From: Pseudomonadota bacterium
Lineage (GTDB): Bacteria > Myxococcota_A > UBA796 > UBA9615
Reading direction: 5' to 3'
Assembly (NCBI GenBank): GCA_024229515.1
Contig: JAAESI010000117.1
Span: forward strand, 22,419 to 86,418
DNA length: 64,000 nucleotides
Shown here: positions 9,564-63,174 of the stretch, one piece after another
How the letters are laid out: each line of letters begins with the position of its first letter
Numbering within the stretch: the first letter of the stretch is position 1
The notes under the pieces: model-generated
The model's input: the letters and a program-made list of their open reading frames with translations, nothing else
Database searches by the model: none
Told to the model about the DNA's origin: nothing
Made by a program: the position numbers and the translations under genes

Positions 9564-9577
9564 CCAGGCTCCCGGGC

Positions 9578-11927: not shown

Positions 11928-11974
11928 AGCGGCCGATGGTACCGCGATCGGCCGCGGGGTAGAGTCGCCGGCCC

Positions 11975-14242
11975 ATGACAAAAAAGAGCCTCGACCGAGC
12001 CGCCCTCGAGTACCACCGCGCCTATCCCCCGGGAAAGCTCCGCATCGAGCCGAGCAAGCCCGTCGGCACCCCGCGTGATCTCAGCCTCGCCTACAGCCCC
12101 GGCGTGGCCGCCCCGTGCCTCGAAATCGCCAAGAACCCCGACGACGCGTTCGAGTACACCGGTCGCGGCAACCTCGTCGCGGTGGTCACGGACGGCACCG
12201 CCGTGCTCGGCCTGGGCAACATCGGCCCACTCGCAGGCAAGCCGGTGATGGAGGGGAAGGCGGTCCTGTTCAAGCGGTTCGCGGACATCGACGTGTTCGA
12301 CCTCGAAGTGGACAGCGCCGGCACCGAGGACTTCATCGCTACGGTGCGCTCGCTGGCCCCGACCTTCGGCGGCATCAACCTCGAGGACATCAAGGCGCCG
12401 GAGTGCTTCACCATCGAGAAGCGGCTCCAGGAAGAGCTCGACATCCCGGTCTTCCACGACGACCAGCACGGCACCGCGATCATCGCGGGAGCGGCGCTGT
12501 ACAACGCGCTGGAGCTGGTCGGAAAGAACCTCGAGGAGGCCCGCATCGTCATGAACGGCGCGGGCGCGGCGGGCATCGCCACGGCCGAGTTGATCGTCGC
12601 CATGGGGGCCAAGAAGGCCAACATCATCCTGTGCGACAGCAAGGGCGTGGTCTTCAAGGGCCGCACCGAGCGGATGAACCAGTATAAGACGTCGTTCGCC
12701 AGCGACACCGAGGCGCGGACCCTCGCGGAGGCGCTGACGGACGCAGACGTCTTCATCGGCGTGTCGGTCGCCGGGGTCGTCAGCAAGGACATGCTCCGAG
12801 CGATGGCGTCCGACCCGATCGTGTTCGCGTTGGCCAACCCGGACCCGGAGATCACCTGGCCCGACGCCAAGGACGCGCGCGACGACGTGATCATGGCGAC
12901 CGGCCGGTCGGACTACCCCAACCAGGTGAACAACGTCCTGGGCTTCCCCTTCATCTTCCGCGGCGCCCTGGACGTGCGGGCCCGCAAGGTGAACGACGCG
13001 ATGAAGATCGCGGCCGTCCGGGCGCTGGCCCAATTGGCCCGCGAGGAGGTGCCCGACAGCATCAGGCGCGCCTACAAGAAGCCGGACATGCGGTTCGGCC
13101 GCGAGTACCTGATCCCCAAGCCGTTCGACCGGCGCGTGCTCCTGTGGGTCGCGCCCGCGGTGGCCAAGGCGGCGGTCGAATCGGGCGTCGCACGCAAGGA
13201 CGTGACCGACTGGGAGCAGTACCAGCACCGCCTCGAGCGGCTGCTGGGGCGGACCCACCAGATCATGCGCCCGCTGATCAACCGGGCCCGGCTGGAGACC
13301 AAGCGGATCGTGTTCCCCGAGGGGTCGCGGCCGAAGATCCTGCGCGCCGCCCGGAACCTCGCCGAGGACGGCGTCTGCACCCCCGTGCTGCTGGCGAACG
13401 CGCGCGACGTGGAGTACACGCTGCTGAAGGAGGGGATCGAGCTCCCGGACTCGGTCGAGATCGTGAACCCGGACGAGAACGACCGGCGCGACGCGTACCA
13501 GAAGCTGCTGTGGAACATGCGCAAGCGGAAGGGGCTGACCCCGCGCGACGCCTCCGCCTGGCTGCGGAACCGGAACACCTTCGGGATGATGATGGTGAAG
13601 GCTGGGGACGCCGACGGCATCGTCACCGGGCTGAACTACAACTACGCTGAAGCGGTGCGCCCGGCCCTGCAGATCCTCGGGCCGCGCGAGGGCGTCTCGA
13701 CGGTGTCGGGGCTGTACGTGATGGTGCTCAAGGAGCGGCTGCTCTTCTTCGCCGACTGCACTGTCAACGTGAACCCCACCGCCGAGGACCTCGCCGAGAT
13801 CGCCGTCAACACCGCCGGCGTGGCCCGCGCGTTCGACGTCGAGCCCAAGGTCGCGATGCTCAGCTTCAGCAACTTCGGCTCCACGCCGACCCCGGAGAGC
13901 AAGCGGGTCAAGCGGGCAGTCGAGATCCTCGCCGAGCGTGAGGTGGACTTCGAGTTCGACGGCGAGATCCAGGGCGACATCGCCTTCAACGTCGCCCTCC
14001 GCGAAGAGGTCTTCCCCTTCAGCAACCTGCGGGGCGAGCCCAACGTGCTGGTCTTCCCGGATCTGCAGTCGGGCAACATCGCCTACAAGCTGCTGACCCA
14101 GCTCGCCGGCGCCACCGCCATCGGGCCCCTTCTGGTCGGCATGAGCCACCCCGTCAACGTGCTCCAGCTCGGCTCGGACGTCTCCACGATCGAGTCGATG
14201 GCGACAATCACCGCGGTGGAGGCGGCCCTCGGCGCATACTGA
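11975..14242 (+). CDS. maeB: NADP-dependent malic enzyme with C-terminal phosphotransacetylase-like domain (MaeB type)
   Basis: 755 aa; malic enzyme core ([35 protein letters not shown]) followed by PTA-like domain. Confidence 0.85.
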
Positions 14243-44008: not shown

Positions 44009-47116
<3,108 letters not shown>

Positions 47117-47219
47117 CGGGGATCTCCGGCCTCGAATCCTAGACGGCCCCCGCGTGCGCGTGAAGGGCTGAATGGGTGCAATAGGGTATCCCCCGGCCAA
47201 TTCGGTCTAGGGTTCGGCC

Positions 47220-48734
47220 GTGCGCATCGCCCTGCTGCAGTGTGAGTTGGAGCACCGTCACCAGGCCCCCCACCTGGCCATGTGCCTGTTCGCACGGGAC
47301 CTGCAAAACGCAGGACATGACGTCCACTGCGGGCTCGTCCACCCCTCCGCGTTGGATGCCGCGGGAGACGCCGCGAGCGGGGTCGATCTGCTCGTCTTGG
47401 ACTCGATCTTCCCGTTCGCGATGGTCCGCCGGCTGAAGGAGCGAACCGGCGCGACGGTGGTGATCGGCGGACACAACGCGCTGCAGCACGCGCTCCGAGG
47501 CCCCGCGGATCTGGCGATCGTCGGGCCGGGACGCCAGGCGATGACGTCGCTGGCCTGGGGAGCCGACCCCGCCCTCATCCCCGGGCTCTGGTGGAAGGAC
47601 CCCGAGGGCGTGCTGCAGGCGTCCCCGGCGGTGCCTGCGGCGCTCGAGTCCCAACTCCTGCCGTTCGATCCGTTCCTGGATTGGGACTACTACGGCCCCC
47701 CGCGGGCTCCCGGATCCAACCTTCGGGTGCCGTCGATCGTGGCCGACTCGGGGTGCGTCTGGAATCGGTCCGCAATCGGCGACGGCGGGCCCTACGCAGG
47801 GATCGCACCGCGGCTCCCCGACGTCCGCCTGGGGCCCGAGGCGACGAAGCAGATCCAATCGACGTTCATTGCCCGCGAGGGAGGCTGCACCTTCTGCGCG
47901 TTTCGCTACACCCCGCACGAACGCGGGGGGGCCGTCGAGGCGGTGCTCGCGCAGGCGGATGTCCTGATCGAGCGGGGCGCGCGGGGGCTGTCGTTGCAGA
48001 CGGAGCACCCCCTCCCCATCACCGCGGCGGTGCTGGACGGACTGGCGGGACGGGGGCTGGACGAGCTCCACATCCGCACGATCCCCTGGCTGCTGAACCG
48101 GAACGTGGCGCTGCTGGATGAGGCCATCGCGGCGGCGGAGCGGACGGGCATCCGGTTGGTGCTCGCCCAGGTCGGGTTCGAAGCCTTCGACGACGCGACC
48201 CTCGGCATCTACCACAAGGGCCTGTCGGGCTCGGAGAATCGGGCGGCGGCGCGGCTGTTGGGGGAGCGCACGGCGGCCCACGACGGCTTCCTCGGGACCG
48301 CCGGCCACGGCCTGGTGCCGCTTCACCCCTGGTCCACGCCGGAGGGGCTGCGCACGACGCTGACGGCGTGCCGCGAGGACGCCCCCTGGCTGCTCCCCCA
48401 GCTGACCCCGGCCAGTCGGATCGAGCTGTACGACGAGTACTCACCGCTGTTCTGGAAGGCGCAGGACGACGGCCTCGTGCAACCCAACCCCGCGTCCTTC
48501 GGTTGGGATTGGACTTGGGCGGATCGCCGCACCGGCGAAGCGGTGGCGGCCTGGGGGGCGATCCTTGAAGCGGCCGTCGCCCCCGAAGCGACCACTGCGG
48601 CGGTGGTGCTCGATGGGGTATTGCACGCCCTGGAGCATCAGTCGAACCCCCAAGATCGTCGGAAGCACTACCTCGACATGCGCGACCGCGCCCGACGCAC
48701 TAAGTTGGATATTCAGGAGTGGAGAGAGCCATGA
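47220..48734 (+). CDS. Hypothetical protein, possibly B12-binding-domain/radical-SAM-like with a non-canonical Cys motif
   Basis: 504 aa; N-terminal Rossmann-like segment (MRIALLQ...DLLVLDSIF...ATVVIGGHNA) resembling B12-binding domains of class B radical SAM enzymes; Cys cluster C-x40-CTFC instead of CxxxCxxC; stop overlaps next gene (ATGA). Confidence 0.4.
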   Translation: MRIALLQCELEHRHQAPHLAMCLFARDLQNAGHDVHCGLVHPSALDAAGDAASGVDLLVLDSIFPFAMVRRLKERTGATVVIGGHNALQHALRGPADLAIVGPGRQAMTSLAWGADPALIPGLWWKDPEGVLQASPAVPAALESQLLPFDPFLDWDYYGPPRAPGSNLRVPSIVADSGCVWNRSAIGDGGPYAGIAPRLPDVRLGPEATKQIQSTFIAREGGCTFCAFRYTPHERGGAVEAVLAQADVLIERGARGLSLQTEHPLPITAAVLDGLAGRGLDELHIRTIPWLLNRNVALLDEAIAAAERTGIRLVLAQVGFEAFDDATLGIYHKGLSGSENRAAARLLGERTAAHDGFLGTAGHGLVPLHPWSTPEGLRTTLTACREDAPWLLPQLTPASRIELYDEYSPLFWKAQDDGLVQPNPASFGWDWTWADRRTGEAVAAWGAILEAAVAPEATTAAVVLDGVLHALEHQSNPQDRRKHYLDMRDRARRTKLDIQEWREP

Positions 48735-49705
48735 CCCGGCTGTTGATCGCGCTGTTCGTCGCTGGCCTGCTGGCCGGATGCCCATCCGAACCGGAGGAGG
48801 AGCGGCCCCCGATCGTCGCCTTCGAGCCGGCCGTGGTGGAGCTCGGCCAATGGACCGTCACCACCGACGGGCTGCCTGAACCGGTCACGGTGCGGCTGGC
48901 CAACCGCGGCTTCGGCCGCGTCTCCGTCACCACCGTCGGCATCGCGGACGACAGGATCGTCACGACGCCGTCGGCGGAACTGCCCGCCGAGGTCGAGCCG
49001 GGCGCGTGGCTGACCATCACCGTCGCGTACGCCGCGAGCCCGACCGGCCCCGTGGACATCAAGACGACGCTGGACGCGACCGTCCGGGCGGTCGGCGACG
49101 CGTTCGACCAGTTCGCCGTGGCGTCCGCGGACGTGCGGGTGATCCTGCTGTGCGACGCCGACGGTGACGGCTACACCGGCGCCGGCTGCGCGGGGCCTGA
49201 CTGCGACGACGAGGACGTCTTCCACAACCCCGCCTCCGAGGAACTCTGCAACGGGCTCGACGATGACTGCAACGGCGTCGCGGACGCCGACGGGGAGGAA
49301 GCCGACGACGACGGCGATGGGCACCTCAGCTGCGCCGAGTGCGACGACGGGGACCCCACCGTGAACCCCGACGCGACCGAGCTGTGCGATGGCGGCGACA
49401 CGGACTGCAACCCCGCGACCTTCTTCGAGGACGGTGAGATCGACTACGACTCGGACGGCTTCCTCAGCTGCGAGGAGTGCGACGACGAGGACCACGACAA
49501 CTCCCCCGACGGCACGGAGATCTGCGACGGCCAGGACAACGACTGCGACGGGGAGCTGTCGGACGCGGAGATCGATGGCGACGGCGACGGGCAGAGCGAG
49601 TGCGACGGCGACTGCGACGACGCCAACCCGGACCGCAACCCCTTCGCCCCGGAGACCGCGGGCGACGGGCTCGACAGCAACTGCAACGGCAACGACGACG
49701 ACTAG
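48731..49705 (+). CDS. Lipoprotein with about 4 MopE-like Cys/Asp-rich repeats
   Basis: GGAGAGAG RBS then ATG 48731; lipobox LLAGC; same repeat type as the 44009..47116 protein (CDDEDVFHNPASEELCNGLDDDCNG etc.). Confidence 0.7.
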   Translation: MTRLLIALFVAGLLAGCPSEPEEERPPIVAFEPAVVELGQWTVTTDGLPEPVTVRLANRGFGRVSVTTVGIADDRIVTTPSAELPAEVEPGAWLTITVAYAASPTGPVDIKTTLDATVRAVGDAFDQFAVASADVRVILLCDADGDGYTGAGCAGPDCDDEDVFHNPASEELCNGLDDDCNGVADADGEEADDDGDGHLSCAECDDGDPTVNPDATELCDGGDTDCNPATFFEDGEIDYDSDGFLSCEECDDEDHDNSPDGTEICDGQDNDCDGELSDAEIDGDGDGQSECDGDCDDANPDRNPFAPETAGDGLDSNCNGNDDD

Positions 49706-49711
49706 CGGCGC

Positions 49712-51517
49712 TCAGCTCCGCGGCTTGGACCGGGGCTCTTCGGCCCGAATCTGGCGACGAAGGCGCCGCGCCTCCTCCGAGGGTCGCGAGTCCAGCTGCT
49801 CCCGCAGGACGCGGACCAGGGAGCCGTACTGGTCCATGGCGTCCACCCTGCGCCCGCCCTCCAGCAGGGTGCGGATCAGGCGGAGGTGGATGTCCTCCCG
49901 CAGGGGATCGACGGCGACGGCCCGACGCAGCAGGCTGACGTCGCCGCTGTTGCCGTCCAGCGCGCGGCGGTAGCGGTCCAGGCGGAGCAGCACATCGATG
50001 CAACGCTCGCGGAAGCGGCTCCGCGGATCAATGGTCCAGACCGCGTCCTCCACCCCTGCGAAGAGGTCACCGCGGTACAGGTCGAGCGCCGCCTGGAGGT
50101 GTGCCCTGGCCGCCCTCTCCGAATCGCCCTGGGCCTCCGCGGTGCGCGCCTTCGCGATGGCGTCTCGGAAGCGCCACAGATCGACGGAAGCGCCCGCCGG
50201 AAGCGCGAGGGAGTAGCGGTCGTTCTCGCAGACGAGCCAGCTGACCGCGCTCTTGTCCTTGTTCGGGCCCAGGGCCTTGCGGAGGGCATAGACCACGCCA
50301 TGCAGGCGGTTCTTGGCCGCCTCGGGCTCGACTCCCGGCCAGAGCAGGCGGGCCAACTGCGAGCCCGCCACGGTCCGTCCGGGCTTGAGCACGAGGAGCT
50401 GGAGCAGCTCCACCGCCTTGCGGCGTGCAAACGCGGAGCGTGGGAGGGGCTCGCCGTCGAGGTGGACCTCGAAGCTGCCGAAGCAGCGGATCTCGACCGG
50501 CGGCTGCACCGCCGCCGGCGGCGGGCCGAGGGCGGGAGGGCGGGGGCCGCGCCAGGCTTCGATGAGCCCCAGCGAGGGGGCGACATAGCGGGTCAGCGGC
50601 AGGGGCACGTGATCGGTGTAGGAGAGCCGGGCGATCCCCTGCAGCACGCCCCCCCGCTCCAGCGGCAGGCAGTACCGGACCTTCGCCGGTCCGCAGCGTT
50701 CCAGGCATGGCTCCGGCCAGTGGACCGAGTCGCCCTCGAGCACCGCCAGGCCCACCTCGCGGACCGGGGCGCAGTCGGCCAGGGACATGTCCCTGGAGCT
50801 CAACGCCAGCCCCCGCGGGCCGACCTCGGCGTTCGACGGCGGGCCGAGCCGGAGCAGGGCCACGTCCGCCGCGGTGAGGGTCCGGAGGCGCTCCCTCAGA
50901 TCCCCTCGAACGTCCGCGTTCGGCCCGACCCAGGCGGCCGCCGAGGCGAGCAGGGCGCTGCCGACGATGCTCCCCAGGCCGGCCAGCACCCGGCCCACCC
51001 GCTCGAAGTCGACGTCGTCTCGCTTCCAGCCGAGGTTGAGCGTGCCGAGCACCCGCCCTGCGGCCCCGATGGGCATCGAGATGAAGGACTTGTACCCCGC
51101 CGCTTTCACGCCGGAGCGCAGGAACCGCTCGTCGTTGTCCAGGCAGCTGGTCTGCACCGCGGCGTTGGTCTGCACCGCCAGGCCGGGGTAGCCATCGGCC
51201 AGGCTGAACCGGCTGATCTCGGCAAAGGTGGCGGCGTCGCAGCCCCGGTGCAGCGTCAGGAGCAGCTCGAGCCCGTCGGGGCGGAGCAGGAAGCACTCCG
51301 CCGAGTCCGCACGGGTGGCGCGCCGCAGCATCTCAAGCACGTCGTCGAGGCTGTCGGCCAGCCTCTGCGGGTCGAGCATCAACGCGGCGCGGCCGATCAA
51401 CGCTAGGTCGCGTTCGTTTCGGCCGATCCGCCGTCGCGCGACAACGGTTCCGTCCAACCGTTCCTGGCCCGGGGGCATGGCCAGGAGGTTGTTGTCTGCT
51501 CGTCCAGACTTCGACAC
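49712..51517 (-). CDS. GAF-domain transcriptional regulator with SARP-type winged helix and BTAD domain
   Basis: 601 aa; N-terminal GAF-like region; winged-helix segment (VEIRCFGSFEVHLDGEPL...HGVVYALRKALG); C-terminal BTAD-like helical repeats. Confidence 0.7.
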   Translation of the reverse strand: MSKSGRADNNLLAMPPGQERLDGTVVARRRIGRNERDLALIGRAALMLDPQRLADSLDDVLEMLRRATRADSAECFLLRPDGLELLLTLHRGCDAATFAEISRFSLADGYPGLAVQTNAAVQTSCLDNDERFLRSGVKAAGYKSFISMPIGAAGRVLGTLNLGWKRDDVDFERVGRVLAGLGSIVGSALLASAAAWVGPNADVRGDLRERLRTLTAADVALLRLGPPSNAEVGPRGLALSSRDMSLADCAPVREVGLAVLEGDSVHWPEPCLERCGPAKVRYCLPLERGGVLQGIARLSYTDHVPLPLTRYVAPSLGLIEAWRGPRPPALGPPPAAVQPPVEIRCFGSFEVHLDGEPLPRSAFARRKAVELLQLLVLKPGRTVAGSQLARLLWPGVEPEAAKNRLHGVVYALRKALGPNKDKSAVSWLVCENDRYSLALPAGASVDLWRFRDAIAKARTAEAQGDSERAARAHLQAALDLYRGDLFAGVEDAVWTIDPRSRFRERCIDVLLRLDRYRRALDGNSGDVSLLRRAVAVDPLREDIHLRLIRTLLEGGRRVDAMDQYGSLVRVLREQLDSRPSEEARRLRRQIRAEEPRSKPRS

Positions 51518-51709: not shown

Positions 51710-53617
51710 TTACGCCTCCGTCGACAGTCCGTAGCGCTTGTCGATGCCGATGATGTGCCCGACGAGCCAGGTCTCCAGGAAGATCATGAAGCGGTCCAGC
51801 ACGTCCGGATCGCCCGAGCCGGCCTCCTCCCGGAGCCCGTGGACCTGCGCCAGGAGCTGCTTGTGCGTCTCCTTGTGCTGGTCGAGGTCGGCGTACCCGA
51901 TGGACTCCATGTAGACCTCTTCGGCGGCGAAGTGGACCCGCGTGTACTCGATGACACCGTCCATGACCGGCCAGATATCCTCGATGTGGCGACCGCGCTG
52001 GATGACCTCGTCCAGGTCGTTGATCAGCCCGATCAGGGTGCGGTGCTGGTCGTCCATGTCGGGCACGCCGACGCTGTACTTCTCCCCCCACTGCATCAGC
52101 GGCGCAAGCACGTCGCCGGGCAGGACCCGGGTCTGGTCGGCGTACTGCGACTCGAACCCGACCGGCGCCTGCGTCATCTTCGTCACGACCCGGTGCATCC
52201 ACACCAGGCAGAACAGCGACAGCACGAACATGAACATCCAGCAGCTGGTCCAGATCCCGGTCCCCTCCAGCAGGTAGCCGAACAGGATCGGGCAGACGAA
52301 GCCGCCGAGGCCGCCGAGCACACCGACCATGCCGCCGACGACGCCGACTTCGTTGGGGAAGTAGTCGGGGATGTGCTTGTAGACCGCCGCCTTGCCGATG
52401 CCCCAGATGGCGCCGAGCAGGATCGCGAGGCCCGCGAACACCCACACGTTGGCCTGGAAGTAGATGCGGGTGACGCCGCGGGCGAGCAGCTGCTTCCGCT
52501 TCACGGCCTCGCCGACCTTCACCATCGGCTCGTGCCAGACGTCCTTGGACGGCAGGATGAGGGTCTCGTCGTCGCCCGTGATCAGGTTCGCGGGCCTCTT
52601 GTCGACGGGGTACGAGGTCTCGCCGACGACGATCGCGTCGGGGAGGATCTCCGAGACGACGCCGTCGCCGCGGGCGATCACGCCCTTGCCGGGGGAGACG
52701 ACCTCCATCTTCGGCACGATCAGCAGGAGGCTGACCAGGACCGAGGTGCCCAGTACGCCGTACATCACCTTGCGAGCACCGAACTTGTCCGACGCCCACC
52801 CGCCGAGCGCGCGGATGACGCCCGAAGGGAAGCTGAACGCCGCCGCGAGGGCACCGGCGGTGACCAGGGTGAGGCCGTAGACGCTGACGAAGTACGGGAC
52901 CAGCCACTGCGAGAAGGCGACGAAGCAGCCGAACACGAGGAAGTAGTACAGGCCGAAGCGCCAGACCCGCATCTGCTTGAGCGGCTTGAGCAGGCCGGCG
53001 AGGGTCTTGCTGGAGACCTCCGGCTTCTTGTTCTCCGTGAGCAGGAGGAACAGCACGGCCACCACGACCATCATCACCGCGTAGTAGACGGGGAGCTGGC
53101 GCCAGTTCTCGAGGTCGGCCCCGTCGTTGGTCAGCCGGTTCAGGAGGGTCGGAGCGAGGATGGTCGTGCCGGCGGCGCCGGCGTTGCCCGCCCCGAAGAT
53201 GCCCAGGGCCGTGCCCTGGTTCTTCTGCGGGTACCAGACCGACGTGAACGCGATGCCGATGGCGAAGCTGGCGCCGCACATTCCGAACCCGAAGCTGCAC
53301 AACGCGAAGGTGAAGAAGGAGTTCGCGTGGGACAGCAGGTACAGCGGGATCGCCGCCAGGAACAGCAGCGACGCGAAGACCGGCTTGCCGCCATAGCGGT
53401 CCGTCAGGATGCCGGCGGGCAGCCGGAAGATCGCGCCGGTCAACACCGGGATGCCGAGCAGCCAGCCGATCTCGACCGGACCCCAGTCGAACACCTGGTT
53501 GCTCGCCAGGAACGTCACGAGGACGCCGTTGAGCATCCAGCAAGCGAAGCAGACCGTGAACGCGAACGTGTTCACCGTCAGGATTCGATGGGAAGTAGCG
53601 GTGGCCTCCTTCAGCAT
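51710..53617 (-). CDS. narK: NarK-type nitrate/nitrite transporter (MFS, NNP family) fused to a C-terminal bacteriohemerythrin domain
   Basis: 635 aa; MFS helices with NNP signature GIFGAGNAGAAG; an 85-aa insert between the two 6-helix halves; C-terminal 125 aa with hemerythrin motifs (DDQHRTLIGLINDL, HFAAEEVYM, DQHKETHKQL, WLVGHIIGIDKRYG). Confidence 0.8.
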   Translation of the reverse strand: MLKEATATSHRILTVNTFAFTVCFACWMLNGVLVTFLASNQVFDWGPVEIGWLLGIPVLTGAIFRLPAGILTDRYGGKPVFASLLFLAAIPLYLLSHANSFFTFALCSFGFGMCGASFAIGIAFTSVWYPQKNQGTALGIFGAGNAGAAGTTILAPTLLNRLTNDGADLENWRQLPVYYAVMMVVVAVLFLLLTENKKPEVSSKTLAGLLKPLKQMRVWRFGLYYFLVFGCFVAFSQWLVPYFVSVYGLTLVTAGALAAAFSFPSGVIRALGGWASDKFGARKVMYGVLGTSVLVSLLLIVPKMEVVSPGKGVIARGDGVVSEILPDAIVVGETSYPVDKRPANLITGDDETLILPSKDVWHEPMVKVGEAVKRKQLLARGVTRIYFQANVWVFAGLAILLGAIWGIGKAAVYKHIPDYFPNEVGVVGGMVGVLGGLGGFVCPILFGYLLEGTGIWTSCWMFMFVLSLFCLVWMHRVVTKMTQAPVGFESQYADQTRVLPGDVLAPLMQWGEKYSVGVPDMDDQHRTLIGLINDLDEVIQRGRHIEDIWPVMDGVIEYTRVHFAAEEVYMESIGYADLDQHKETHKQLLAQVHGLREEAGSGDPDVLDRFMIFLETWLVGHIIGIDKRYGLSTEA

Positions 53618-53648: not shown

Positions 53649-55289
53649 TCAGCAGCTGCGGGCGGAGCCCTTTCTCACGTAGAACCACCAGTTCACGACC
53701 AGGCAGGTGGCGTAGTAGCCGGCGAAGCCGTACAGCGCGTACTCCGGCGTTCCGTTCTTGATCTGCTGGCCGAAGATCTTGGGGATGAGGTACGCCCCGT
53801 AGGCGGCGACCGCGGCCGTCCAGCCGAGCACGGGACCGCGCAGGTCCTTGTCGAACAGCACGCCGATCATGCGGAAGGTCGAGCCGTTGCCGATCCCGGT
53901 CATCGCGAAGAGGATGATGAAGAGGATCAAGAAGGGCATGAAGTACTGGGTCGGGTCCTCGGACCGGGCGGCCGCCGCGGTGAACCAGCCCGCGCCGATC
54001 GTCGCCGCGACCATCACGATCGTGCTCCAGTGGGTGACCTTCGATCCGCTGTCGATCTTGTCGCTGAGCCAGCCGCCGACGGGCCGGATCAGCGCGCCCA
54101 CGCCCGCGCCGATCCAGATGTAGGCCGCCGACTTCATCCCGGTCGGGTCGCCGGCGTGCTCGCCCACCCGGATGACGCCGAAGACGTCGTCGATCAGCTT
54201 GGGGAAGGCGTTGGCGTAGCCGATGAAGGAGCCGAACGTCATGACGTACAGGTAGGTCATGATCCAGTTGTCCCGCTCGCTGAAGATCGCGAACTGGCCC
54301 TGGAGGTTCTTCTTTGTTTCCGCGGGGGTGAGGTACCTCAACAACGCCAGCGTCGTGACGATCGCCACGATGGCCACGAGGAACGTCTTCAGGAGCACCG
54401 GGAAGCCGCCCCAGGGGATGATCAACAGCACGATCGCGAGCGCCGCGCCGGCGAAGCCGAGCGTGGTCATCCAGAGGTGCTTGCCCACCGCCACCGGGGT
54501 CGGCCCGCAGTGGTGGAAGGGCATGTTGTCCATGAACAGGAACGCGAGGATCGTGCAGGTGATGATGATCGGCACCCACACCAGGCCCGCGTTCTGGACC
54601 CACATCTGGGCGGCCGCCCCATCGGCGGCGTAGCTGTACGGGTCGCCGCCCATCGCTCCGAACATCCCGAACGTGATCGCCCACGGGATCAGGAACTGCA
54701 TGGCGCTGACGCCGAGGTTGCCCAGCCCCGCGTTCAGCCCGAGGGCCAGGCCCTGCATCTTCTTGGGGAAGAAGAAGCTGATGTTGGACATCGACGACGA
54801 GAAGGCGCCGCCTCCGGTGCCGGACAGCGCCGCGAGGATGATGAAGACGTAGTAGGGCGTGTCGGGGTTCTGCAGCGCGATCCCGGCGCCCAGGGCGGGC
54901 AGGATCAGCAGCAGCGTGGTCATGAACTTCACGTTCCGACCGCCGACGATCGAGATCATGAACGAGTTGACGATTCGGAGGGTGGCGCCGGACAGCCCCG
55001 CCACCGCCGGCAGCAGGAACAGGAGCCCTCGGTAGCCGCCGTCGTCGTACGGCTGCCCGTCGTTCATGAAGGTGAAGTTGAAGAGCTCGCCGTCGGTCCC
55101 GAAGTGGAGCTTCTGGATGTACTTGGCGACCATGCCCCAGTAGATCCAGACCGCGAACCCCAGGAACAGTTGGGGGATCGACACCCACAGGTTCCGGTTG
55201 GCGACCTTCTTGCCCTCGGACTCCCAGAACTGTTCGTCCTCGGGTTCCCAACGGGTCAGGCGGCTGGCGGGGTTCGGACGATCGGTCAT
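53649..55289 (-). CDS. narK: NarK-type nitrate/nitrite transporter (MFS, NNP family)
   Basis: 546 aa, 12 predicted TM helices, NNP signature GLNAGLGNLG; overlapping ORF 53611..55251 is an off-frame artefact. Confidence 0.85.
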   Translation of the reverse strand: MTDRPNPASRLTRWEPEDEQFWESEGKKVANRNLWVSIPQLFLGFAVWIYWGMVAKYIQKLHFGTDGELFNFTFMNDGQPYDDGGYRGLLFLLPAVAGLSGATLRIVNSFMISIVGGRNVKFMTTLLLILPALGAGIALQNPDTPYYVFIILAALSGTGGGAFSSSMSNISFFFPKKMQGLALGLNAGLGNLGVSAMQFLIPWAITFGMFGAMGGDPYSYAADGAAAQMWVQNAGLVWVPIIITCTILAFLFMDNMPFHHCGPTPVAVGKHLWMTTLGFAGAALAIVLLIIPWGGFPVLLKTFLVAIVAIVTTLALLRYLTPAETKKNLQGQFAIFSERDNWIMTYLYVMTFGSFIGYANAFPKLIDDVFGVIRVGEHAGDPTGMKSAAYIWIGAGVGALIRPVGGWLSDKIDSGSKVTHWSTIVMVAATIGAGWFTAAAARSEDPTQYFMPFLILFIILFAMTGIGNGSTFRMIGVLFDKDLRGPVLGWTAAVAAYGAYLIPKIFGQQIKNGTPEYALYGFAGYYATCLVVNWWFYVRKGSARSC

Positions 55290-55354: not shown

Positions 55355-56083
55355 TCAGTTGTTCTTGGGCCGCGTCGGGCTCCAGGGGGTCTTCGGATCC
55401 CGGATCCGATCCTTGTTCCAGTTCCACATCACCTGCTGGTAGGGCCGGGAGATGTAGTGCAGCGGCGCCACGAAGATGTGCACGAGGCGCGTGAACGGGA
55501 CCATGAAGAGGATCAGGAACGCGCCGAAGATGTGCAGCTTGATGACCACCGGCAGGGCGAACACCGCGGCGGTCTCGGGGCTGAGCTTGAACAGCGACCA
55601 CAGGTACGGCGAGAGGTCGGCGGCGAACCACGAGGACCCCCACCGGAAGCCGAGGGCGACCCAGCAGCCCAGGACGACCTGGGCGAGCAGGAGCAGCTCG
55701 ATGGCGATGTCCATCCTGGTGGTCACGGCCTTGATCCGCTCGTTCGTCAGGCGACGATGGAGCAGGCCCACGAGGCCGACCAGGATGCTCATCCCGAAGG
55801 TGACCGCGGTGACCTCGAGGATGATCAGCCGGACCGGCTGACCGTTCCAGGCGAGGATCGCCGCCGGCACGAGGAACGCCAGCAGGTGTCCGCCGAGCAC
55901 GATGAGCAGTCCGATGTGGAACGGCATCACGCCCCAGAAGAGCTTCTTGCCCTCCAGGAACTGGGACGACAGCGAGCTGACCTTGAAGCCCGTCTGGCGG
56001 TACCGGATGGCGGTGCCGATGACGAACGTGATCATCGCCACGTAGGGGAACGCGACGAACATGAAGGTGTTCAGGGTGTTCAT
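55355..56083 (-). CDS. narI: Respiratory nitrate reductase gamma subunit (membrane cytochrome b)
   Basis: 242 aa, five TM helices with conserved His ligands, position after narJ. Confidence 0.85.
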   Translation of the reverse strand: MNTLNTFMFVAFPYVAMITFVIGTAIRYRQTGFKVSSLSSQFLEGKKLFWGVMPFHIGLLIVLGGHLLAFLVPAAILAWNGQPVRLIILEVTAVTFGMSILVGLVGLLHRRLTNERIKAVTTRMDIAIELLLLAQVVLGCWVALGFRWGSSWFAADLSPYLWSLFKLSPETAAVFALPVVIKLHIFGAFLILFMVPFTRLVHIFVAPLHYISRPYQQVMWNWNKDRIRDPKTPWSPTRPKNN

Positions 56084-56844
56084 GTCAGCTTCCCGATTCC
56101 GTAGATCCGTTGTTGGGGCTGGGGCGGGGGGACGGCCGTCGACGGCTTGTGTCCCGCGCCCTTCTCTTCGATGTCGAGCTCACGCCCGATCGACGCGAGG
56201 AAGGGGCTGGTCTCCTCGGGCCGGCCCGAGGGGCCGATGCCGAAGTCGTGTCGCACGATGTGCAGCAGCGTGACCAACGCGTTGCGGTAGACGAGGGCTC
56301 GGTCCTGCGACGTCGCGATCAGCGTCTTGTTGTACTTCTGGTAGACGGCGTTCCGAGCTTCGGTCTGCTGCTCGCCGAACTCCCGCACCATCTCTTCGAG
56401 CGCCGGGTGGAAGATCATCTCGACGAACTCGACCACGATCTCCTCGTCCTTCCAGCGCGCCAACAGGCGCAGGACGTTGGGCAGGTGGTCGGCCAGCTCG
56501 CTGCCGCAGTCGATGCCCGCGGCGCGGTGCTCGCGCCGCAGGTTGACCAGCACTTCGGCGCGCTTGTAGTCGTCGCCGAAGGCGATGTAGCCGATGTCCA
56601 GCGTCGTGACGGCCTGCACCTGGAACGACCGGGTGAACAACTCCTGCGCCTCGTCCAGCTCGGCGTCGGTCAGGATCGGCCCCCCGTCGCCGGGGAGCAG
56701 GTCAGCGAAGGCCTTCAGGGCCGGCTCGGCGTGCTCGTACCGACTCTCGACGTGGGCACGCGCCTCCGCAACCCGCGCCGGAAGGTCCGGTCCGGGGTAG
56801 TCGAAGAGCGCCGCGAGGAGCTCGTAGTGGTCCATCGGGATCAT
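56080..56844 (-). CDS. narJ: Nitrate reductase molybdenum cofactor assembly chaperone
   Basis: 254 aa from ATG 56844 (MIPMDHYELLAALFDYPGPD...) embedded in longer ORF 56080..57735; between narH and narI. Confidence 0.8.
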   Translation of the reverse strand: MIPMDHYELLAALFDYPGPDLPARVAEARAHVESRYEHAEPALKAFADLLPGDGGPILTDAELDEAQELFTRSFQVQAVTTLDIGYIAFGDDYKRAEVLVNLRREHRAAGIDCGSELADHLPNVLRLLARWKDEEIVVEFVEMIFHPALEEMVREFGEQQTEARNAVYQKYNKTLIATSQDRALVYRNALVTLLHIVRHDFGIGPSGRPEETSPFLASIGRELDIEEKGAGHKPSTAVPPPQPQQRIYGIGKLT

Positions 56845-56846
56845 GC

Positions 56847-58400
56847 TCAGCTCCCCCGCTCGGCGGAGCCGTCCTTGAACCCGAAGCCGGTGTTCCCCTT
56901 CACGTCGCCGGTGAACTCGAGCATCTCGATCGCCTGCTCGCGGTGGGCGGCGGGCACGACGAACCGGTCGTCGAACTTGGCCAGCGAGGTCAGGTAGTAG
57001 ATGTCGTCTGCCAGCTCCGCCGTCAGGCCGACGTCGGCCAGGGTCTTGTCGGCCTTGGCGTCGGTGATGTCGCCGACGGTAACGCGGCGGCGGTGGATGC
57101 GCACGGCCATCAGCTTCTTGAGCCGATCGATGACCATGGCCTCGTCGCCGTTGCTGAAGAGGCTCGCGAGGTACTTCATCGGCATCCGGGCCTGCTCGAT
57201 GGTGCCCCAGAGCTCTTCGGTGCTCGTGTCGTACAGCCAGTTGTCCGGCCAGTACTTCGCGATGTCGTGCATCTTCTCGGACTGCGCCGTGTTGTCGACG
57301 TCCTTGACCGAGGCCATCACCGGCAGCATCGGCGGCACGTAGAAGAGCATCGGGAGCGTGCGGAACTCCGGGTGCAGCGGCAGCGCCAGACCCCACGTCT
57401 TGATGAACTTGTACGTCGGCGAGTACTGCGCGGCGTGGATCGTCGAGTCCGCGATGCCGTTGGCCTTGGCCGAGGCGATCACCTTCTCGTCGAAGGGGTC
57501 CTGGATGATGTCCATGTGGTTGTTGACGAGGCTCGCGTCGTCGGACGAGGCGACCTGGTGGATCTTGTCCGCGTCGTACAGGAGCACCCCGAGGTAGCGG
57601 ATGCGGCCCACGCAGGAGTGCATGCACGCCGGCGCGTAGCCCGCCTCGATGCGGGGGTAGCAGAGGATGCACTTCTCGGACTTGCCGGTGTGCCAGTTGT
57701 AGTACGACTTCTTGTACGGGCAGGCCGTCACGCACATGCGCCAGGCGCGGCAGACGGACTGGTTGATCAGGACCACGCCGTCCTCACCGCGCTTGTACAG
57801 CGCCCCCGAGGGGCACGACGCGACGCAGGCGGGGTTGAGGCAGTGGTTGCAGATCCGCGGCAGGTAGAAGAAGCACATCCGCTCGAGCTGGAACATCGCC
57901 TCCTGCTCGGCCTCGGACAGGTCCTTCATGTTGGGATCTTTGCGCGCGTAGTCGGGCGTGCCCGACCAGTCGTCGTCCCAGTTGGGCCCCATCCGGATGT
58001 CCATCGGCTTGCCGGTGATCATCGAGATCGGACGCGCCGTCGGCTGATCGTCGCCGGCCGGCGACTCGATCAGGTCCAGGTAGCGGTAGGTGAACGGCTC
58101 GTAGTAGTCGCCGATCTCCGGCATGTGGGGGTTGTGGAAGATGTTCCGCAGCCCCTTCTTCTTGCCGGCTCCCTTGAGGTCGATCCCGTTGGCGTCCTTC
58201 TCCCAGCCGCCTTTGTAGATCTCCTGGTCTTCCCACTTGGTGGGGTAGCCCGTGCCAGGCTTGGTCTCCACGTTGTTCCACCACATGTATTCGGCGCCCT
58301 TGCGGTCCGTCCAAATGTTCTTGCATGCGATGGAGCAGGTGTGGCAGCCGATGCACTTGTCGAGGTGGAACACCATCGAGACTTGTGAGCGAATGTCCAT
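56847..58400 (-). CDS. narH: Respiratory nitrate reductase beta subunit (Fe-S)
   Basis: 517 aa; four Cys clusters (CIGCHTCSIAC, CNHCLNPACVASCP, CRAWRMCVTACPYKK, CILCYPRIEAGYAPACMHSC). Confidence 0.95.
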   Translation of the reverse strand: MDIRSQVSMVFHLDKCIGCHTCSIACKNIWTDRKGAEYMWWNNVETKPGTGYPTKWEDQEIYKGGWEKDANGIDLKGAGKKKGLRNIFHNPHMPEIGDYYEPFTYRYLDLIESPAGDDQPTARPISMITGKPMDIRMGPNWDDDWSGTPDYARKDPNMKDLSEAEQEAMFQLERMCFFYLPRICNHCLNPACVASCPSGALYKRGEDGVVLINQSVCRAWRMCVTACPYKKSYYNWHTGKSEKCILCYPRIEAGYAPACMHSCVGRIRYLGVLLYDADKIHQVASSDDASLVNNHMDIIQDPFDEKVIASAKANGIADSTIHAAQYSPTYKFIKTWGLALPLHPEFRTLPMLFYVPPMLPVMASVKDVDNTAQSEKMHDIAKYWPDNWLYDTSTEELWGTIEQARMPMKYLASLFSNGDEAMVIDRLKKLMAVRIHRRRVTVGDITDAKADKTLADVGLTAELADDIYYLTSLAKFDDRFVVPAAHREQAIEMLEFTGDVKGNTGFGFKDGSAERGS

Positions 58401-58441: not shown

Positions 58442-61400
58442 TCAGAAGACCACCTTGTCCATGCGCTTGATGATCACGTGAGTGTCGCGCTGCGGAGCGA
58501 TGGGACCCCAGTAGTTGAAGTGGTAGGCGAACTGGCCGTAGCCGCCTGCCAGGTAGTTCGGCTTCAGGTGGATCCGCGTGAAGCTGTTGTGCCCGCCGGC
58601 CCGCTTGTTGCCGCGAACCTGGGACTTCGGGATGCCGACCGTGCGCTCGGGCACGTGGTAGACGATGCAGACCCCCTTGGGGATCCGCGCGCTCACCGTG
58701 CACCGGGTGCAGTAGACGCCGTGGTCGTTGTAGACCTCGACCCAGTCGTTGTCCTGGATGCCCATGGCCGCCGCGTCCGGCTCGCTGAGCCAGCAGGGCT
58801 CGCAGCCGCGGGACAGCGTCAACATCCGGTGGTTCTCCATGTAGGTGGAGTGGATGTGCCACTTTCCGTGCGGGGTCAGGCAGTTGAGGATCAGCGCCTC
58901 GCCGCCCTGCAGCGTCGTCTTGAGGTCACCGTAGGCCTCGGGCTTCGGAGACGGCTTGTAGGTCGGCAGGTTCTCGCCGTACGCGATGTACATCTCGTGG
59001 TCGAGGTAGAAGTGCTGCCGGCCCGTGAGGGTCCGCCACGGCACGCGCATGTCGACGTTGTAGGTGTAGGCGCAGTAGGCGCGGCCGTCGTTCATCAGCC
59101 CCGACCACAAGGGCGAGGTGTTGTAGCGGCGCGGCTGGGCCTGCAGGTCGGCGTACCGAATGCGGACGTCCTCGCTCCCCTTGCCCAGGTGCACGAGGTC
59201 GACGCCGGTCTTGGCTGCGGCGTTCTCGTAGGCCCGGACGTTGAGCTTGCCGTTGGTCAGGGTCGACAAGTGCAGCACCGCGTTGGCGGCGTACTCGTCT
59301 TCCTGGATCGACGGGAGCGTCTTGCCGTTGAACTTCCGCACCGGGAAGTGGTTCGACTCGATCATCTCCTCGTAGGCGTCGCCGGCATCGAAGTGGTTGC
59401 CGTGGGCGCCCAGGCCGGCGTCGATGATGCGGTCGCCGAGGGTGACGTACTTCTCGTACAGCTGGGTGTAGTCGCGGTCGACGATCGCCAGCTTGTGCAT
59501 CGTCTTGCCGGGGATCGGCTCGCACTCGCCCAGGTACCAGTCCTGCACGTTCCGCATCGCGATCTCGCCCGGCGAGTCGTGCGCGATGGGAGCGGAGATG
59601 ATGTCCTTCTTGGGACCGGAGAAGTACTGCAGCGCGGCCCCGGACGTGGCCTTCGCCAGCGTCCTGAAGATGTCCCAGTCCGTCTTCGACTCCCACACCG
59701 GCGGGATGGCCGCCGACAGGGGGTGGATGAAGGAGTGGAGGTCCGTGCTGTTGAGGTCCGCCTTCTCGTACCAGGAAGCCGCCGGCAGGACGATGTCGGA
59801 GTAGAGCGCCGAGCTGTCCATGCGGAAGTTCAGGTTGACGATCAGGTCCATCTTCCCGCGGGGGGCGACGTCATGCCACTTGACGTCTTCGGGGCGCTGG
59901 TCGGAGTCCTCGCCGATCGCGTTGCTGTGGGTGCCCAGGTAGTGCTTGAGGCAGTACTCGTGCCCCTTCATGGAGCCCATGATCGCGTTGCCGCGCCAGA
60001 TGTACCAAACGCGCGGGAAGCTGGCCTCGGCGTCGGGATCGCTGACGCAGTAGTTCAGCTGCTTCGACTTGAGCTTGTTCAGCACGTACTGCTGGATGGC
60101 CCCGTCGTCGCTGGCGCCCTGGCTCTGGGCCTCCTCACAGAGGTCGAGCGTGTTCTGGTCGAACTGCGGGAAGAAGGGCATCCAACCGAGCCGCACGGCC
60201 TTGAAGATCGTGTCGGCGGTATGCTTCCGGGTCCAGTCGTTGTCCGGCACGGTGTTGTACCGGCTGAACTGACCGTCGTAGCGGTACTGGCAGGTGTTGA
60301 TGTAGTGCCAGATGGGCGCCTGCTGGAGCCGCACCGCAGCGTGGTGATCCTTGCCGAAGGCGATCGTGCCCCAGGAGTCCACCGGAGCCAGCTTCTCCTG
60401 GCCGACGTAGTGGTTCAGGCCGCCGCCGTTCTTGCCCACGCAGCCCGAGAGCATGAGGGCCATCGCCCCGGCGCGGTACATCAGGTTGGCGTGGTACCAG
60501 TGGTTGATACCGGCACCGATGATGATCATGCACTTGCCTTCGGTCGTGTTGGCCGTGGCGGCCCACTCCCGAGCAAACTGCAGCACCGTCTTGGAGTCGA
60601 CGCCCGTGAAGATCTCCTGCCACGCCGGCGTGTACGCGGCGTCCTTGTCGGTGTAGTCGGTCGGGTACGCGCCCTGAAGGCCGCGGTTGATGCCGTACTG
60701 ACCCATGATCAGGTCGTAGACCGTCGCCACCGCCACGGGGCCGTGGTTGGTGTCCACCTGCATGACGGGCACGCCGCGGTAGACCGTGGTGTCCAGCCCG
60801 AACTCGGTGAAGGCGCACTGCGCGACCTCGGTGCTGCGGTCCAGCAGCGTGAGGACCGGGTCGTACGGCTGATCGTCGACGATGTTCTCGTGGAGCGTGT
60901 TCCAGTTGCCGGGCTTGTCGTCCCAGCGCGCTCCCGAGGAGCCCTTCGGCACGACCAGGCGGCCGCTCTCCTGGTCGAGGTTCACGAACTTCCAGTCGCC
61001 GTTCGTGATGCCCTCGAACTGGGCGAGGTCGCCAGCGCGGAGCAGGCGGCCGGGCTTGTAGCGGTCGCCGTCCTTCTCGAGCTCGACGAGGAAGGGGCTG
61101 TCCGTGTGCTTCTTGACGTAGTCGAGGAAGTACGGGGTCTTGGCCTTGTGGTGGAACTCCGTGAGGATGACGTGCGTGACCGCCATCCAGAAGGCGCCGT
61201 CGCTGCCGGCGTGGATCGGGACCCACTGGTCAGCGTACTTGCAGACCTGGCTGAAGTCGGGCGCGAACACGACCGCCTTGGTGCCGTTGTGGCGCGACTC
61301 CGCGAAGAAGTGGCAGTCCGGGGTGCGCGTCATGTTCAGACACGCGCCCATGTCCGCGATCATCTTGGAGTTGTACCAATCGGCGCTCTCGCAGACGTCG

Positions 61401-62059
61401 GTCTGCTCGCCCCAGATCTCGGGGAACGCCGTGGGCAGGTCGCAGTACCAGTCGTAGAAGCTGAGGTTCACTCCGCCGAAGAGCTGGAGGAACCGGCCGC
61501 CGGCGGCGTAGCTCAGCATCGACATGGCCGGGATCGGGGAGAAGCCGATGACCCGGTCCGGACCGTAGTCCCGCGCCGTGCGGATGTTCGCCACGGCCAT
61601 CAGCTCCAGGACCTCGTCCCAGTGGGCGCGCCGAAAGCCGCCCTTGCCGCGGGCCGTCTGGTAGGTCTGCCGCGCCCGCGAGTCGGACTGCAGCGCCTCC
61701 CAGGCCTTCATCGGGTCGCCGCCGTTGGACGCCTTCTTCGAGCGCCAGGCATCCAGCAGCGCGCTGCGGATCAGCGGGTACTTGATGCGCAGCGGGCTGT
61801 AGAGGTACCAGGAGTAGGAGATGCCGCGCTGGCAGCCCCGGGGCTCGTACGGAGGCAGTGAGTCCTCGAGCAGCGGGTAGTCCAGCTGCTGGGTCTCCCA
61901 CACGACGATGCCGTCCTTGACGTGGACCTGCCACGAGCAGCCGCCGGTGCAGTTCACACCGTGGGTGCTGCGGACGATCCGGTCGTGCTGGAAGCGGTTC
62001 CGATAGAACTCCTCCCACTTGCGGGTCTGCGGGGAGATGATGTCTTTGATCCAACCCAT
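58442..62059 (-). CDS. narG: Respiratory nitrate reductase alpha subunit (Mo-bisMGD catalytic subunit)
   Basis: 1205 aa; N-terminal FS0 motif [11 protein letters not shown]; conserved throughout. Confidence 0.95.
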
Positions 62060-62089: not shown

Positions 62090-62983
62090 CTAGATGGAGT
62101 CGACCTGGCGGTCGTAGATGGCCTGGTTGACCGATCCGCGCTTGCGGTTGCCCCAGATCAGCGAGTACAGGAGGAGGAGGAGGACGGTTCCGACCGCGCC
62201 GCTGGCCGCGAGCTTGAGGCCCGTGTCCCGCGGGAGGTGGTTGCTCTGCTCGGAGCTGACCTGCTCGAGGAAGCTGACCAGGGCGACCACCTCGGCCTCC
62301 TCGAGGGAGCGGTCCTCGTAGGCGGCCTGCATGACCGGGAAGGGCGGGCTCCCCAGGATCGCGCGGACGCCGTTGCCGCCGAGGCGACCGAACACCGTCG
62401 TCAGCTCGCGGGCGAGGATGCCGCCGCCGATGATCGCGTCGTTGGTGACGTCGTGGCAGGAGATGCACGACGGTCCGCCGTGGGCGAGCCGCGTCTCGCC
62501 GGTGAACAGATCCTGTCCAAGCTGGATCTGCTCGGGGGTCGCGGGCGGCTCGACGGGAGCCGGCGTGGGCTCCGGGGCCGCCTCTCCGCCGCCCCCGTCC
62601 GCCGCGGGGGGAGCCCCCGAGGCCTGGACGTAGCCCAGGATCGCGTCGACCTGGACCGCCGTCAGCGGCTGATCCGGCATCGGGATGTTGTTGTACTCGG
62701 CGAACAGCTCGACCGCCGTGGGGTCACCGTCCTTCACCATCTTCTGCGAAGCCGGAATGAACTGGTGCAGCCACTCCTTGGTCCGCCGCTCCGTGACCCC
62801 CTGGAGGTCCGGTCCGACGAGGCGGCCGCCGCCAATGCTGTGGCACGCGGCGCAGGTTGTCTTGAAGAGCTTCTCTCCGTCCTGGGCTGCGGCTGCCCGG
62901 GGCAGCAGCAGTCCGCCGATCGCGATCGCGAGGGCGACGGCTCCGACGGGGAGGGTCAAGAGGGTGGCGGTATTTCGACGCAT
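62090..62983 (-). CDS. Membrane-anchored diheme cytochrome c, NarC-like
   Basis: ATG 62983 (MRRNTATLLTLPVGAVALAIAIGG signal/anchor); two CxxCH motifs (CAACH, CISCH); C-terminal hydrophobic anchor; immediately upstream of narG. Confidence 0.7.
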   Translation of the reverse strand: MRRNTATLLTLPVGAVALAIAIGGLLLPRAAAAQDGEKLFKTTCAACHSIGGGRLVGPDLQGVTERRTKEWLHQFIPASQKMVKDGDPTAVELFAEYNNIPMPDQPLTAVQVDAILGYVQASGAPPAADGGGGEAAPEPTPAPVEPPATPEQIQLGQDLFTGETRLAHGGPSCISCHDVTNDAIIGGGILARELTTVFGRLGGNGVRAILGSPPFPVMQAAYEDRSLEEAEVVALVSFLEQVSSEQSNHLPRDTGLKLAASGAVGTVLLLLLYSLIWGNRKRGSVNQAIYDRQVDSI

Positions 62984-63174
62984 GGCCTGCCTTCTCCCGG
63001 CCGCGCACAAGGTCGTACGCGGTTGTCGCGGGAGGTATAGGGGAGGCCGCTTACAGCCCACTTACGGGACCCGACTTTGTTCGGCAGCGGCTCGTCTTTC
63101 GCACGAGGAGGCCGCTATGGTTCGTCGACTGGAGGTGTCGTCTGTCCGCCGAGCTGCCCCTGCATGCCGCGCTC

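Follow-up and report, generated by a model that had tools for sequence, protein, structure and literature searches.

The gene at positions 51710-53617 (minus strand) of the DNA analysed here encodes a NarK1-type MFS transporter that carries a bacteriohemerythrin domain at its C-terminus, in a single protein of 635 amino acids. The window, as we call the whole stretch of 64,000 nucleotides, comes from contig JAAESI010000117.1 (positions 22,419 to 86,418 of the forward strand; GenBank assembly GCA_024229515.1) of a Pseudomonadota bacterium that GTDB places in Myxococcota_A, and the fusion gene stands there in a nar cluster. This architecture is real, conserved, present in several phyla and uncharacterised. 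The block that O2 places on nitrate uptake determines at what point pathogens and denitrifiers change from one electron acceptor to another, and in this way affects the loss of nitrogen and the formation of N2O at oxic-anoxic interfaces. With a respiratory nitrate carrier and an O2/redox sensor domain in one gene, the question of how O2 exerts this control becomes testable with one gene. An earlier note, made from the nucleotide sequence, had pointed out the fusion and suggested that transport is gated directly by O2 or NO. Its structural statements hold, and the suggested gating is plausible in view of characterised hemerythrin sensors and of the inhibition of nitrate uptake by O2.

The open reading frame is unbroken over 635 codons and ends with a stop codon at 51710-51712. 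A GGAGA precedes its ATG, and 31 nt separate this start from the stop codon of the transporter gene that lies upstream. The identical 635-amino-acid protein has been called in four independent assemblies. The GC content at third codon positions (GC3) hardly differs between the MFS part (0.97) and the hemerythrin part (0.95), and it agrees with that of narG and the neighbouring transporter gene. Across about 170 loci the lengths of homologues are cleanly bimodal, at 487-528 and 633-648 amino acids. One could still suppose that two adjacent genes had been joined by a frameshift or in a chimeric contig. Nothing was found in favour of this, although in a few database homologues (P0023, P0099 and L131) the hemerythrin part is frameshifted or truncated. 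An artefact of assembly or annotation is nevertheless rejected, as having practically no chance of being correct, by the identical protein in four assemblies, the bimodal lengths, the uniform GC3 and the recurrence of the fusion in at least 97 protein clusters described below. The claim of the earlier note that transporter and hemerythrin share one gene is therefore upheld by the single frame, the four assemblies and the uniform GC3, the last two of which exclude a chimera and the frameshift that it had named as a possible refutation.

The transporter part is matched by Pfam MFS_1 at E 2e-44, and TIGR00886, the NarK family, is the top NCBIfam family match of the protein. Its TIGR00886 score of 187.3 bits is below the curated cut-off of 311.7, with the match split in two by an insert of 87 residues. 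The 546-amino-acid transporter encoded next to it, which is clearly NarU-like, also falls under this cut-off (247.8 bits), so the cut-off may simply be strict. An AlphaFold2 model of the fusion protein, built on 89 homologues, has a mean predicted local distance difference test score (pLDDT) of 81. It contains twelve long helices in two six-helix bundles, at residues 7-300 and 391-481, and its top Foldseek matches are the E. coli NarK/NarU structures 4U4V, 4IU8 and 4JRE (E about 1e-11). The description of this part in the earlier note as a 12-helix NNP-family transporter is thus borne out by family and PDB matches, model and fold search alike.

The residues that handle nitrate in NarK are also in place. 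In E. coli NarK, the nitrate site and coupling switch comprise F49, R89, F147, N175, Y263, F267, G268 and R305, as established by crystallography and mutagenesis (PMC4432589). A HMMER alignment to NarK/NarU pairs the first four with F24, R65, F118 and N145, which lie in the N-terminal bundle of transmembrane helices TM1-TM6 (residues 7-195; 53033-53599), and the last four with Y225, F229, G230 and R269, which lie in TM7-TM9 (residues 216-300; 52718-52972). All eight are invariant in the alignment of 89 homologues. The remaining helices, TM10-TM12 (residues 391-481; 52175-52447), hold the second glycine-rich NNP motif, GVLGGLGGF. These segments, all encoded on the minus strand, were delimited by the AlphaFold2 helices and the NarK/NarU alignment. 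Judged by sequence and model, the fusion protein has both the 12-helix fold and the site residues of the NNP family. The MFS part is 41% identical to the product of Thermus narK (229 bits) and gives 40 bits with narT, and the NarU model scores 41.9 bits with the fusion protein versus 252.8 with the 546-amino-acid neighbour. On these comparisons the fused transporter is assigned to type 1 (NarK1/Thermus NarK-like) and the neighbour to type 2.

Of the lysines and arginines, 19 fall in the even-numbered loops and the two terminal segments taken together, and none in the short odd-numbered loops. From this positive-inside count the C-terminus is expected to be cytoplasmic, as a check proposed in the earlier note had sought to establish. 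Topology rules and the NarK structures lead us to expect an arrangement with both termini inside, so that the hemerythrin is cytoplasmic and the loop between TM9 and TM10 periplasmic. That loop is occupied by a beta-rich insert of about 87 amino acids (residues 304-390; 52448-52708, minus strand), which is beta-rich at 305-386 in the AlphaFold2 model and has a barrel-sandwich-hybrid (biotinyl/lipoyl-like) fold. The earlier account of the transporter had missed this domain. It is common to all the hemerythrin-less orthologues found in nar operons, whereas E. coli NarK/NarU and Thermus NarK are without it. Binding of a periplasmic partner and capture of nitrate are possibilities for its role.

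Residues 506-635 (51713-52102, minus strand) form the bacteriohemerythrin four-helix bundle, delimited by the NF033749 match, the alignment to 4XPX and DcrH, and the AlphaFold2 model, whose helices run at 519-540, 545-572, 578-599 and 604-634 (pLDDT about 75-92). The earlier note had assigned the C-terminal 125 residues to this domain; its terminal position is correct, and the fold begins at about residue 506, making it some 130 residues long after a linker of 24. All three profiles score above their curated cut-offs. Over residues 507-630, NF033749 reaches 117.3 bits and TIGR02481 111.2 bits, where 84 and 51.75 are required, and Pfam Hemerythrin PF01814 gives 43.7 bits over residues 518-627 (gathering score 25.3). 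When the C-terminal 157 residues were compared with solved structures, the Methylococcus bacteriohemerythrin 4XPX was the best match (E 1.4e-18) and DcrH-Hr was matched as well. The seven iron ligands are in register with those of both proteins: H525 (codon 52043-52045), H562 (51932-51934), E566 (51920-51922), H581 (51875-51877), H585 (51863-51865), H621 (51755-51757) and D626 (51740-51742), all on the minus strand. The four motifs quoted in the earlier note are real and align with these ligands, none of which is lost. Together they give the canonical pattern H-HxxxE-HxxxH-HxxxxD. A hemerythrin-like domain of the P1B-5 type was rejected, as the third motif here, HKETH, is a canonical HxxxH. 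Sequence and model alike, then, give the domain the profile scores, the ligands and the fold of a bacteriohemerythrin.

Among fused proteins, the identity of the hemerythrin part falls to 25-36%, with a median of 36% to the query, and that of the membrane core is 73-79%. All seven ligands are nevertheless invariant in the alignment of 89 homologues. Ligands that never change in a domain that diverges so fast point to purifying selection on a working metal site. We infer by analogy that the domain binds two irons and reacts with O2 like its solved relatives. An exhaustive search with the hemerythrin domain returned 22,006 relatives at E <= 1e-3, and the top of the list consisted mostly of multi-hemerythrin repeat proteins. 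By this comparison the domain is an ordinary bacteriohemerythrin, and the search gives no donor lineage. The closest multi-domain relatives among those tested were DcrH-like chemoreceptors, in which hemerythrin is joined to a methyl-accepting chemotaxis protein (MCP-Hr), at 39-45% identity.

Transporter and hemerythrin are connected by a conserved linker of 24 residues (482-505; 52103-52174, minus strand) with the motif P485-x-G-F-E489-x-K/Q-Y/F. P485 occurs in 100% and E489 in 98% of the fused forms, as opposed to 17% and 8% of the unfused ones.

The fusion is not confined to the window. From a search of 5.8 billion proteins, the best 120 matches were examined, and at least 97 clusters (90% identity) among them combine MFS_1 with Hemerythrin. 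They are 57-73% identical to the query over its full length, the survey of NarK homologues that the earlier note had called for thus showing that the fusion recurs. It is spread over several phyla, with Myxococcota, Planctomycetota, Gemmatimonadota and Bdellovibrionota among the labels of the metagenome-assembled genomes that contain it. The bins that carry it are labelled Haliangium, Planctomycetota, Gemmatimonadetes, 'delta proteobacterium', Brocadiaceae and Bdellovibrionaceae. Among cultured organisms it is found in Zooshikella ganghwensis (WP_084611265.1) and Z. marina, as a protein of 634 amino acids annotated 'MFS transporter', and it also occurs in one Litorilituus metagenome-assembled genome. 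Certain RefSeq entries of Z. ganghwensis annotated 'bacteriohemerythrin', 419-427 amino acids long, share a 90% cluster (that of P0098) with the 634-amino-acid 'MFS transporter'. In these entries the gene was probably called without the N-terminal part of the fusion, so that the annotation hides the architecture. For the fused proteins, annotation goes no further than 'NNP family ... MFS transporter'. No description of a NarK- or MFS-hemerythrin fusion was found in the literature searched, which left most subscription journals and transporter databases outside, and a brief earlier mention is possible. The earlier note was right that the architecture is uncharacterised, in that no description was found, although as an unremarked 'MFS transporter' it is common in databases.

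The fusion gene is linked to nar genes in about 29 of the roughly 46 distinct loci with usable flanks, and in about 17 it is not. Most of the latter belong to one clade of 25 members, to which loci L087 (fusion gene at about 8277-10184), L088, L118, L119, L123, L124 and L128 belong and which includes the Zooshikella and Litorilituus proteins. In several metagenomic contigs of this clade the fusion gene immediately follows nuoLMN and is itself followed by a gene for a DEAD-box helicase. No denitrification gene was found within 10 kb of the fusions of this stand-alone clade.

Orthologues without the hemerythrin domain are 65-72% identical over residues 1-483 and share the beta insert. They lie almost without exception in operons in which narGHJI is followed by this type of transporter and then by one of the NarT type, as in Desulfuromusa kysingii and Geomobilimonas luticola. 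From this nearly constant association with narGHJI and a second transporter, the core of the transporter is judged to carry nitrate for respiration. No separate hemerythrin gene was found within 10 kb of the unfused orthologues at E <= 1e-5. In a neighbour-joining tree of the MFS part, which was rooted on a distant paralogue, has no support values and was used only for interleaving and not for root direction, fused and unfused forms are interleaved. Eleven unfused proteins (L006, L007, L134, L135, L137, L138, L166, P0103, P0107, P0108 and P0119) end right after the linker motif ...KYPxGF(E/D)SK. Since unfused proteins that end at a fusion-specific linker imply secondary truncation, the sequences are most simply read as repeated loss of the hemerythrin domain. 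Other C-terminal domains on relatives were rejected, the long match spans that had suggested them being due to the adjacent NarT-type gene, and no Paracoccus-style NarK1-NarK2 fusion was found among the relatives examined, apparent open reading frames of 868 and 1033 amino acids having proved to run through stop codons. In some of the nar operons with these transporters (L095-L097, L103, L105, L110, L134, L139 and L144), NarG is only about 41% identical to NarG of the window and NarI 25-31%, which suggests, from sequence, a second and divergent nitrate-reductase lineage paired with the same transporter pair.

In the window, the fusion gene closes a cluster read from the minus strand. At the head of the operon is a NarC-like c-type cytochrome (62090-63061; Cytochrom_C, E 1.9e-13), in the same layout as the Thermus plasmid locus L172 and locus L089. 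It is followed by narG (58442-62059), narH (56847-58400) and, further on, narI (55355-56083), all recognised by Pfam. The narJ-like gene (56080-56844; 254 amino acids) is so called only from its position between narH and narI, having no Pfam match. For NarGHI, which with its NarI subunit is oriented towards the cytoplasm, nitrate has to be brought into the cell. The 546-amino-acid transporter gene of the NarK2/NarT (NarU-like) type comes next (53649-55289), its best Thermus match being narT and not narK, and then the fusion gene itself. A regulator with GAF, winged-helix and BTAD domains (49712-51517; Pfam) begins 192 bp further downstream on the same strand, where the interval between the two genes yielded no terminator-like site. 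The fusion gene, described earlier as the last gene of the nar operon, is thus the last structural gene of the cluster, but a co-directional regulator gene follows it. This regulator is 27% identical over 468 amino acids (E 2e-34) to the Thermus GAF protein encoded upstream of narC, and is DnrS-like. Thermus DnrS is a GAF-domain regulator and a proposed O2-sensitive nar activator (PMC6282519). The cluster may therefore have a second, transcriptional oxygen control through the DnrS-like regulator. Its layout is that of the narCGHJIKT element of Thermus thermophilus with its GAF regulator, here in a host of 69% GC.

A weak radical-SAM-like open reading frame of 504 amino acids lies just downstream of the regulator (47220-48734, plus strand), a 328-amino-acid protein encoded at 48719-49705 (plus strand) has four MopE-type putative copper-binding repeats, and a 1063-amino-acid protein at 44009-47200 (minus strand) has 15 of them. 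The MopE-repeat proteins, an FHA-domain protein on a matching contig and the labels of the nearest metagenome-assembled genomes suggest that the host is probably Myxococcota-like. On the Thermus thermophilus plasmid NZ_AP025614.1 (L172), DUF2249 genes (drpAB) and a gene for a protoglobin-domain protein are found downstream of narKT, at 11746-14034. DUF2249 is also found fused to hemerythrin domains (PMC6282519). Taken together, the protoglobin and DUF2249 genes near Thermus narKT and the DUF2249-hemerythrin fusions suggest that O2-binding domains recur around such nar clusters.

It has long been observed that O2 rapidly inactivates respiratory nitrate transporters generally; the control point is the transporter, and the mechanism is not established (PMC3445494). 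NasA in place of NarK2 escapes O2 control, and 23 point mutants, with both cysteines included, left that control unaffected (PMC3445494). Opening of NarK to the cytoplasm needs bending of TM7, TM10 and TM11 (PMC4432589). Given this gate movement, a domain tethered 24 residues from TM12 would be well placed to hinder opening.

We put at about an even chance the proposal that nitrate import is gated by O2 or redox state through the cytoplasmic hemerythrin, the diferrous form being active and the oxidised form blocked. The fused protein would be a type-1 importer that feeds the cytoplasm-facing NarGHI and is under post-translational control by its own hemerythrin domain. Under anoxia the di-iron site would be diferrous and the transporter would cycle. 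On entry of O2 the site would bind O2 or become oxidised, and the resulting change in the four-helix bundle would be relayed through the conserved 24-residue linker on TM12. Movement of the C-terminal bundle at the cytoplasmic gate would thereby be hindered, and nitrate import would halt at once. Electrons would then go to O2 ahead of transcriptional shut-down, the latter probably through the adjacent DnrS-like regulator. Such two-level control, of import and of transcription, would have the same logic as that described for M. tuberculosis narK2. The sign of the proposed regulation is taken from characterised hemerythrin sensors, in which the diferrous form is active and the diferric form inactive (PMC9388753).

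Several observations weigh against this proposal. The domain has been lost repeatedly from near-identical transporters of nar operons and is thus dispensable for transport. About 40% of the fusion loci are away from nar genes, and the tie to nitrate respiration thus does not hold throughout the family. In view of the stand-alone clade, the fusion may do more than control the uptake of nitrate for respiration. The pLDDT is below 50 at residues 481-505, which include the linker, too low for the model to show whether the domain docks onto the transporter. In the comparison of fused and unfused forms, no residues on the cytoplasmic face of the MFS core were found to track the presence of the domain, only positions of the linker. 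Hemerythrin, moreover, binds NO as well as O2. In the classical organisms, O2 inhibition has been ascribed to cellular redox state and not to O2 itself (PMC3445494).

The affinity for NO raises the alternative that the domain is a sensor of NO, or of nitrite through its reaction with the diferrous site, and that it slows nitrate import as a protective feedback when intermediates of denitrification build up in the cytoplasm. NO is a ligand of deoxyhemerythrin, which also reacts with nitrite, and the gene stands in an operon for nitrate respiration whose product, nitrite, arises in the cytoplasm. In M. tuberculosis, where NO inhibits respiration and NarK2 thereby stays active (PMC3445494), nitrogen oxides do enter into this point of control, and the PF01814 superfamily reportedly includes NO-related di-iron proteins discussed for denitrification regulons (PMC1274295). 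The domain itself, however, scores as the O2-binding type with NF033749 and TIGR02481 and has the canonical ligands; among solved structures it stands nearest to McHr and DcrH-Hr, which bind O2, and not to proteins of the RIC/YtfE type, and the stand-alone clade is without a denitrification gene within 10 kb. We consider sensing of nitrogen oxides, which is the chief rival and chemically reasonable, unlikely. Much the same low probability attaches to a domain that does not gate at all, and that serves instead as a module for iron, oligomerisation or stability, as a mark for degradation when oxidised, or as a local buffer or scavenger that supplies or removes O2 at the membrane near respiratory complexes. 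The repeated loss of a dispensable domain would fit such a role, as would the position of several stand-alone members right after nuoLMN, which are aerobic respiratory genes, and the fact that McHr-type proteins are O2 carriers. The P1B-5 ATPases, the only other transporter-hemerythrin fusion to have been studied, are likewise undecided between O2/redox and iron sensing. On the other hand, one domain per transporter would buffer poorly next to soluble hemerythrins, the invariant ligands and the linker conserved across phyla point to intramolecular signalling, and among multi-domain proteins it is sensory MCP fusions that are most closely related.

A further reading concerns the MFS part, which might carry nitrite or another small anion, or be a transporter-like receptor that is read together with the hemerythrin. 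Its TIGR00886 score of 187 against a cut-off of 311.7, the unexplained beta insert, which by topology is periplasmic, and the roughly 40% of fusion loci that are not nar-linked could all be cited for it. The NarU-like neighbour, however, is also below that cut-off at 247.8, all seven residues of the nitrate site of E. coli NarK, and G268 with them, are conserved here and do not vary in the family, and the unfused orthologues are nearly always inside narGHJI operons beside a NarT-type partner. We regard this reading as very improbable.

Gating of nitrate import by the hemerythrin, if true, could explain how O2 switches off nitrate uptake within seconds. The stronger form of the proposal, in which a di-iron sensor hard-wired to a secondary transporter gates it allosterically and provides the first molecular mechanism for the O2 block of nitrate uptake, is tentative, its chance lying somewhat short of even. 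It would add a new type of output, the secondary transporter, to hemerythrin sensors, so far represented by chemotaxis receptors and cyclic di-GMP enzymes, and the protein would be the first known example of an MFS carrier gated by a sensor in this way. The repeated losses of the domain would then mark lineages that use another route of O2 control. The family is abundant in environmental assemblies, and the cultured Zooshikella carriers make experiments feasible.

Among known systems, the nar element of Thermus thermophilus is similar in having a NarC-like cytochrome, narGHJI, a NarT-type partner and a DnrS-like regulator, and in its NarK, the first transporter of narCGHJIKT, which is 41% identical to the fused transporter. 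Thermus NarK is, however, without the insert between TM9 and TM10 and without any C-terminal domain, and in Thermus narK precedes narT, whereas in the window the NarT-type gene comes first and the NarK-type fusion second. An NNP gene of Paracoccus pantotrophus, probably NasA as judged from its neighbours, is 38-48% identical to the MFS part of the fusion. The E. coli NarK/NarU structures (4JR9, 4U4V and 4IU8) are the best fold matches, with a Foldseek E of 6e-12 and a TM-score of about 0.75 on the target, although they are only about 17-19% identical to the fusion and have neither insert nor hemerythrin. They are of type 2 (NarK2/NarT-like), a role that belongs in the window to the 546-amino-acid neighbour.

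On the hemerythrin side, McHr (4XPX) shares all the ligands and the leucine of the WLxxH motif (L114 in McHr, L618 here), but is a free-standing soluble O2 carrier, whereas the domain described here is fused. The P1B-5 ATPases are similar as membrane transporters with a C-terminal hemerythrin-type domain, yet they are ATP-driven primary metal pumps with the non-canonical pattern H-HxxxE-HxE-HxxxxD in place of the canonical HxxxH. Similar in design are the sensors DcrH (MCP-Hr) and Bhr-DGC, as well as Bhr-HD-GYP, which likewise combine a seven-ligand four-helix bundle and an output module in one polypeptide; in DcrH the hemerythrin is also C-terminal, cytoplasmic and part of a membrane protein. 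The criteria given for hemerythrin sensors are conserved ligands, fusion to a functional domain, an enlarged substrate tunnel, rapid autoxidation and an O2- or redox-dependent output (PMC9388753), and the fusion protein has the two of these that are seen at sequence level, the ligands and the fusion to a functional domain. No sensor with a transporter as its output is included in the 2022 review of hemerythrin sensors. The output of the known sensors is a chemoreceptor, a diguanylate cyclase or an HD-GYP phosphodiesterase, whereas here it would be a secondary active transporter.

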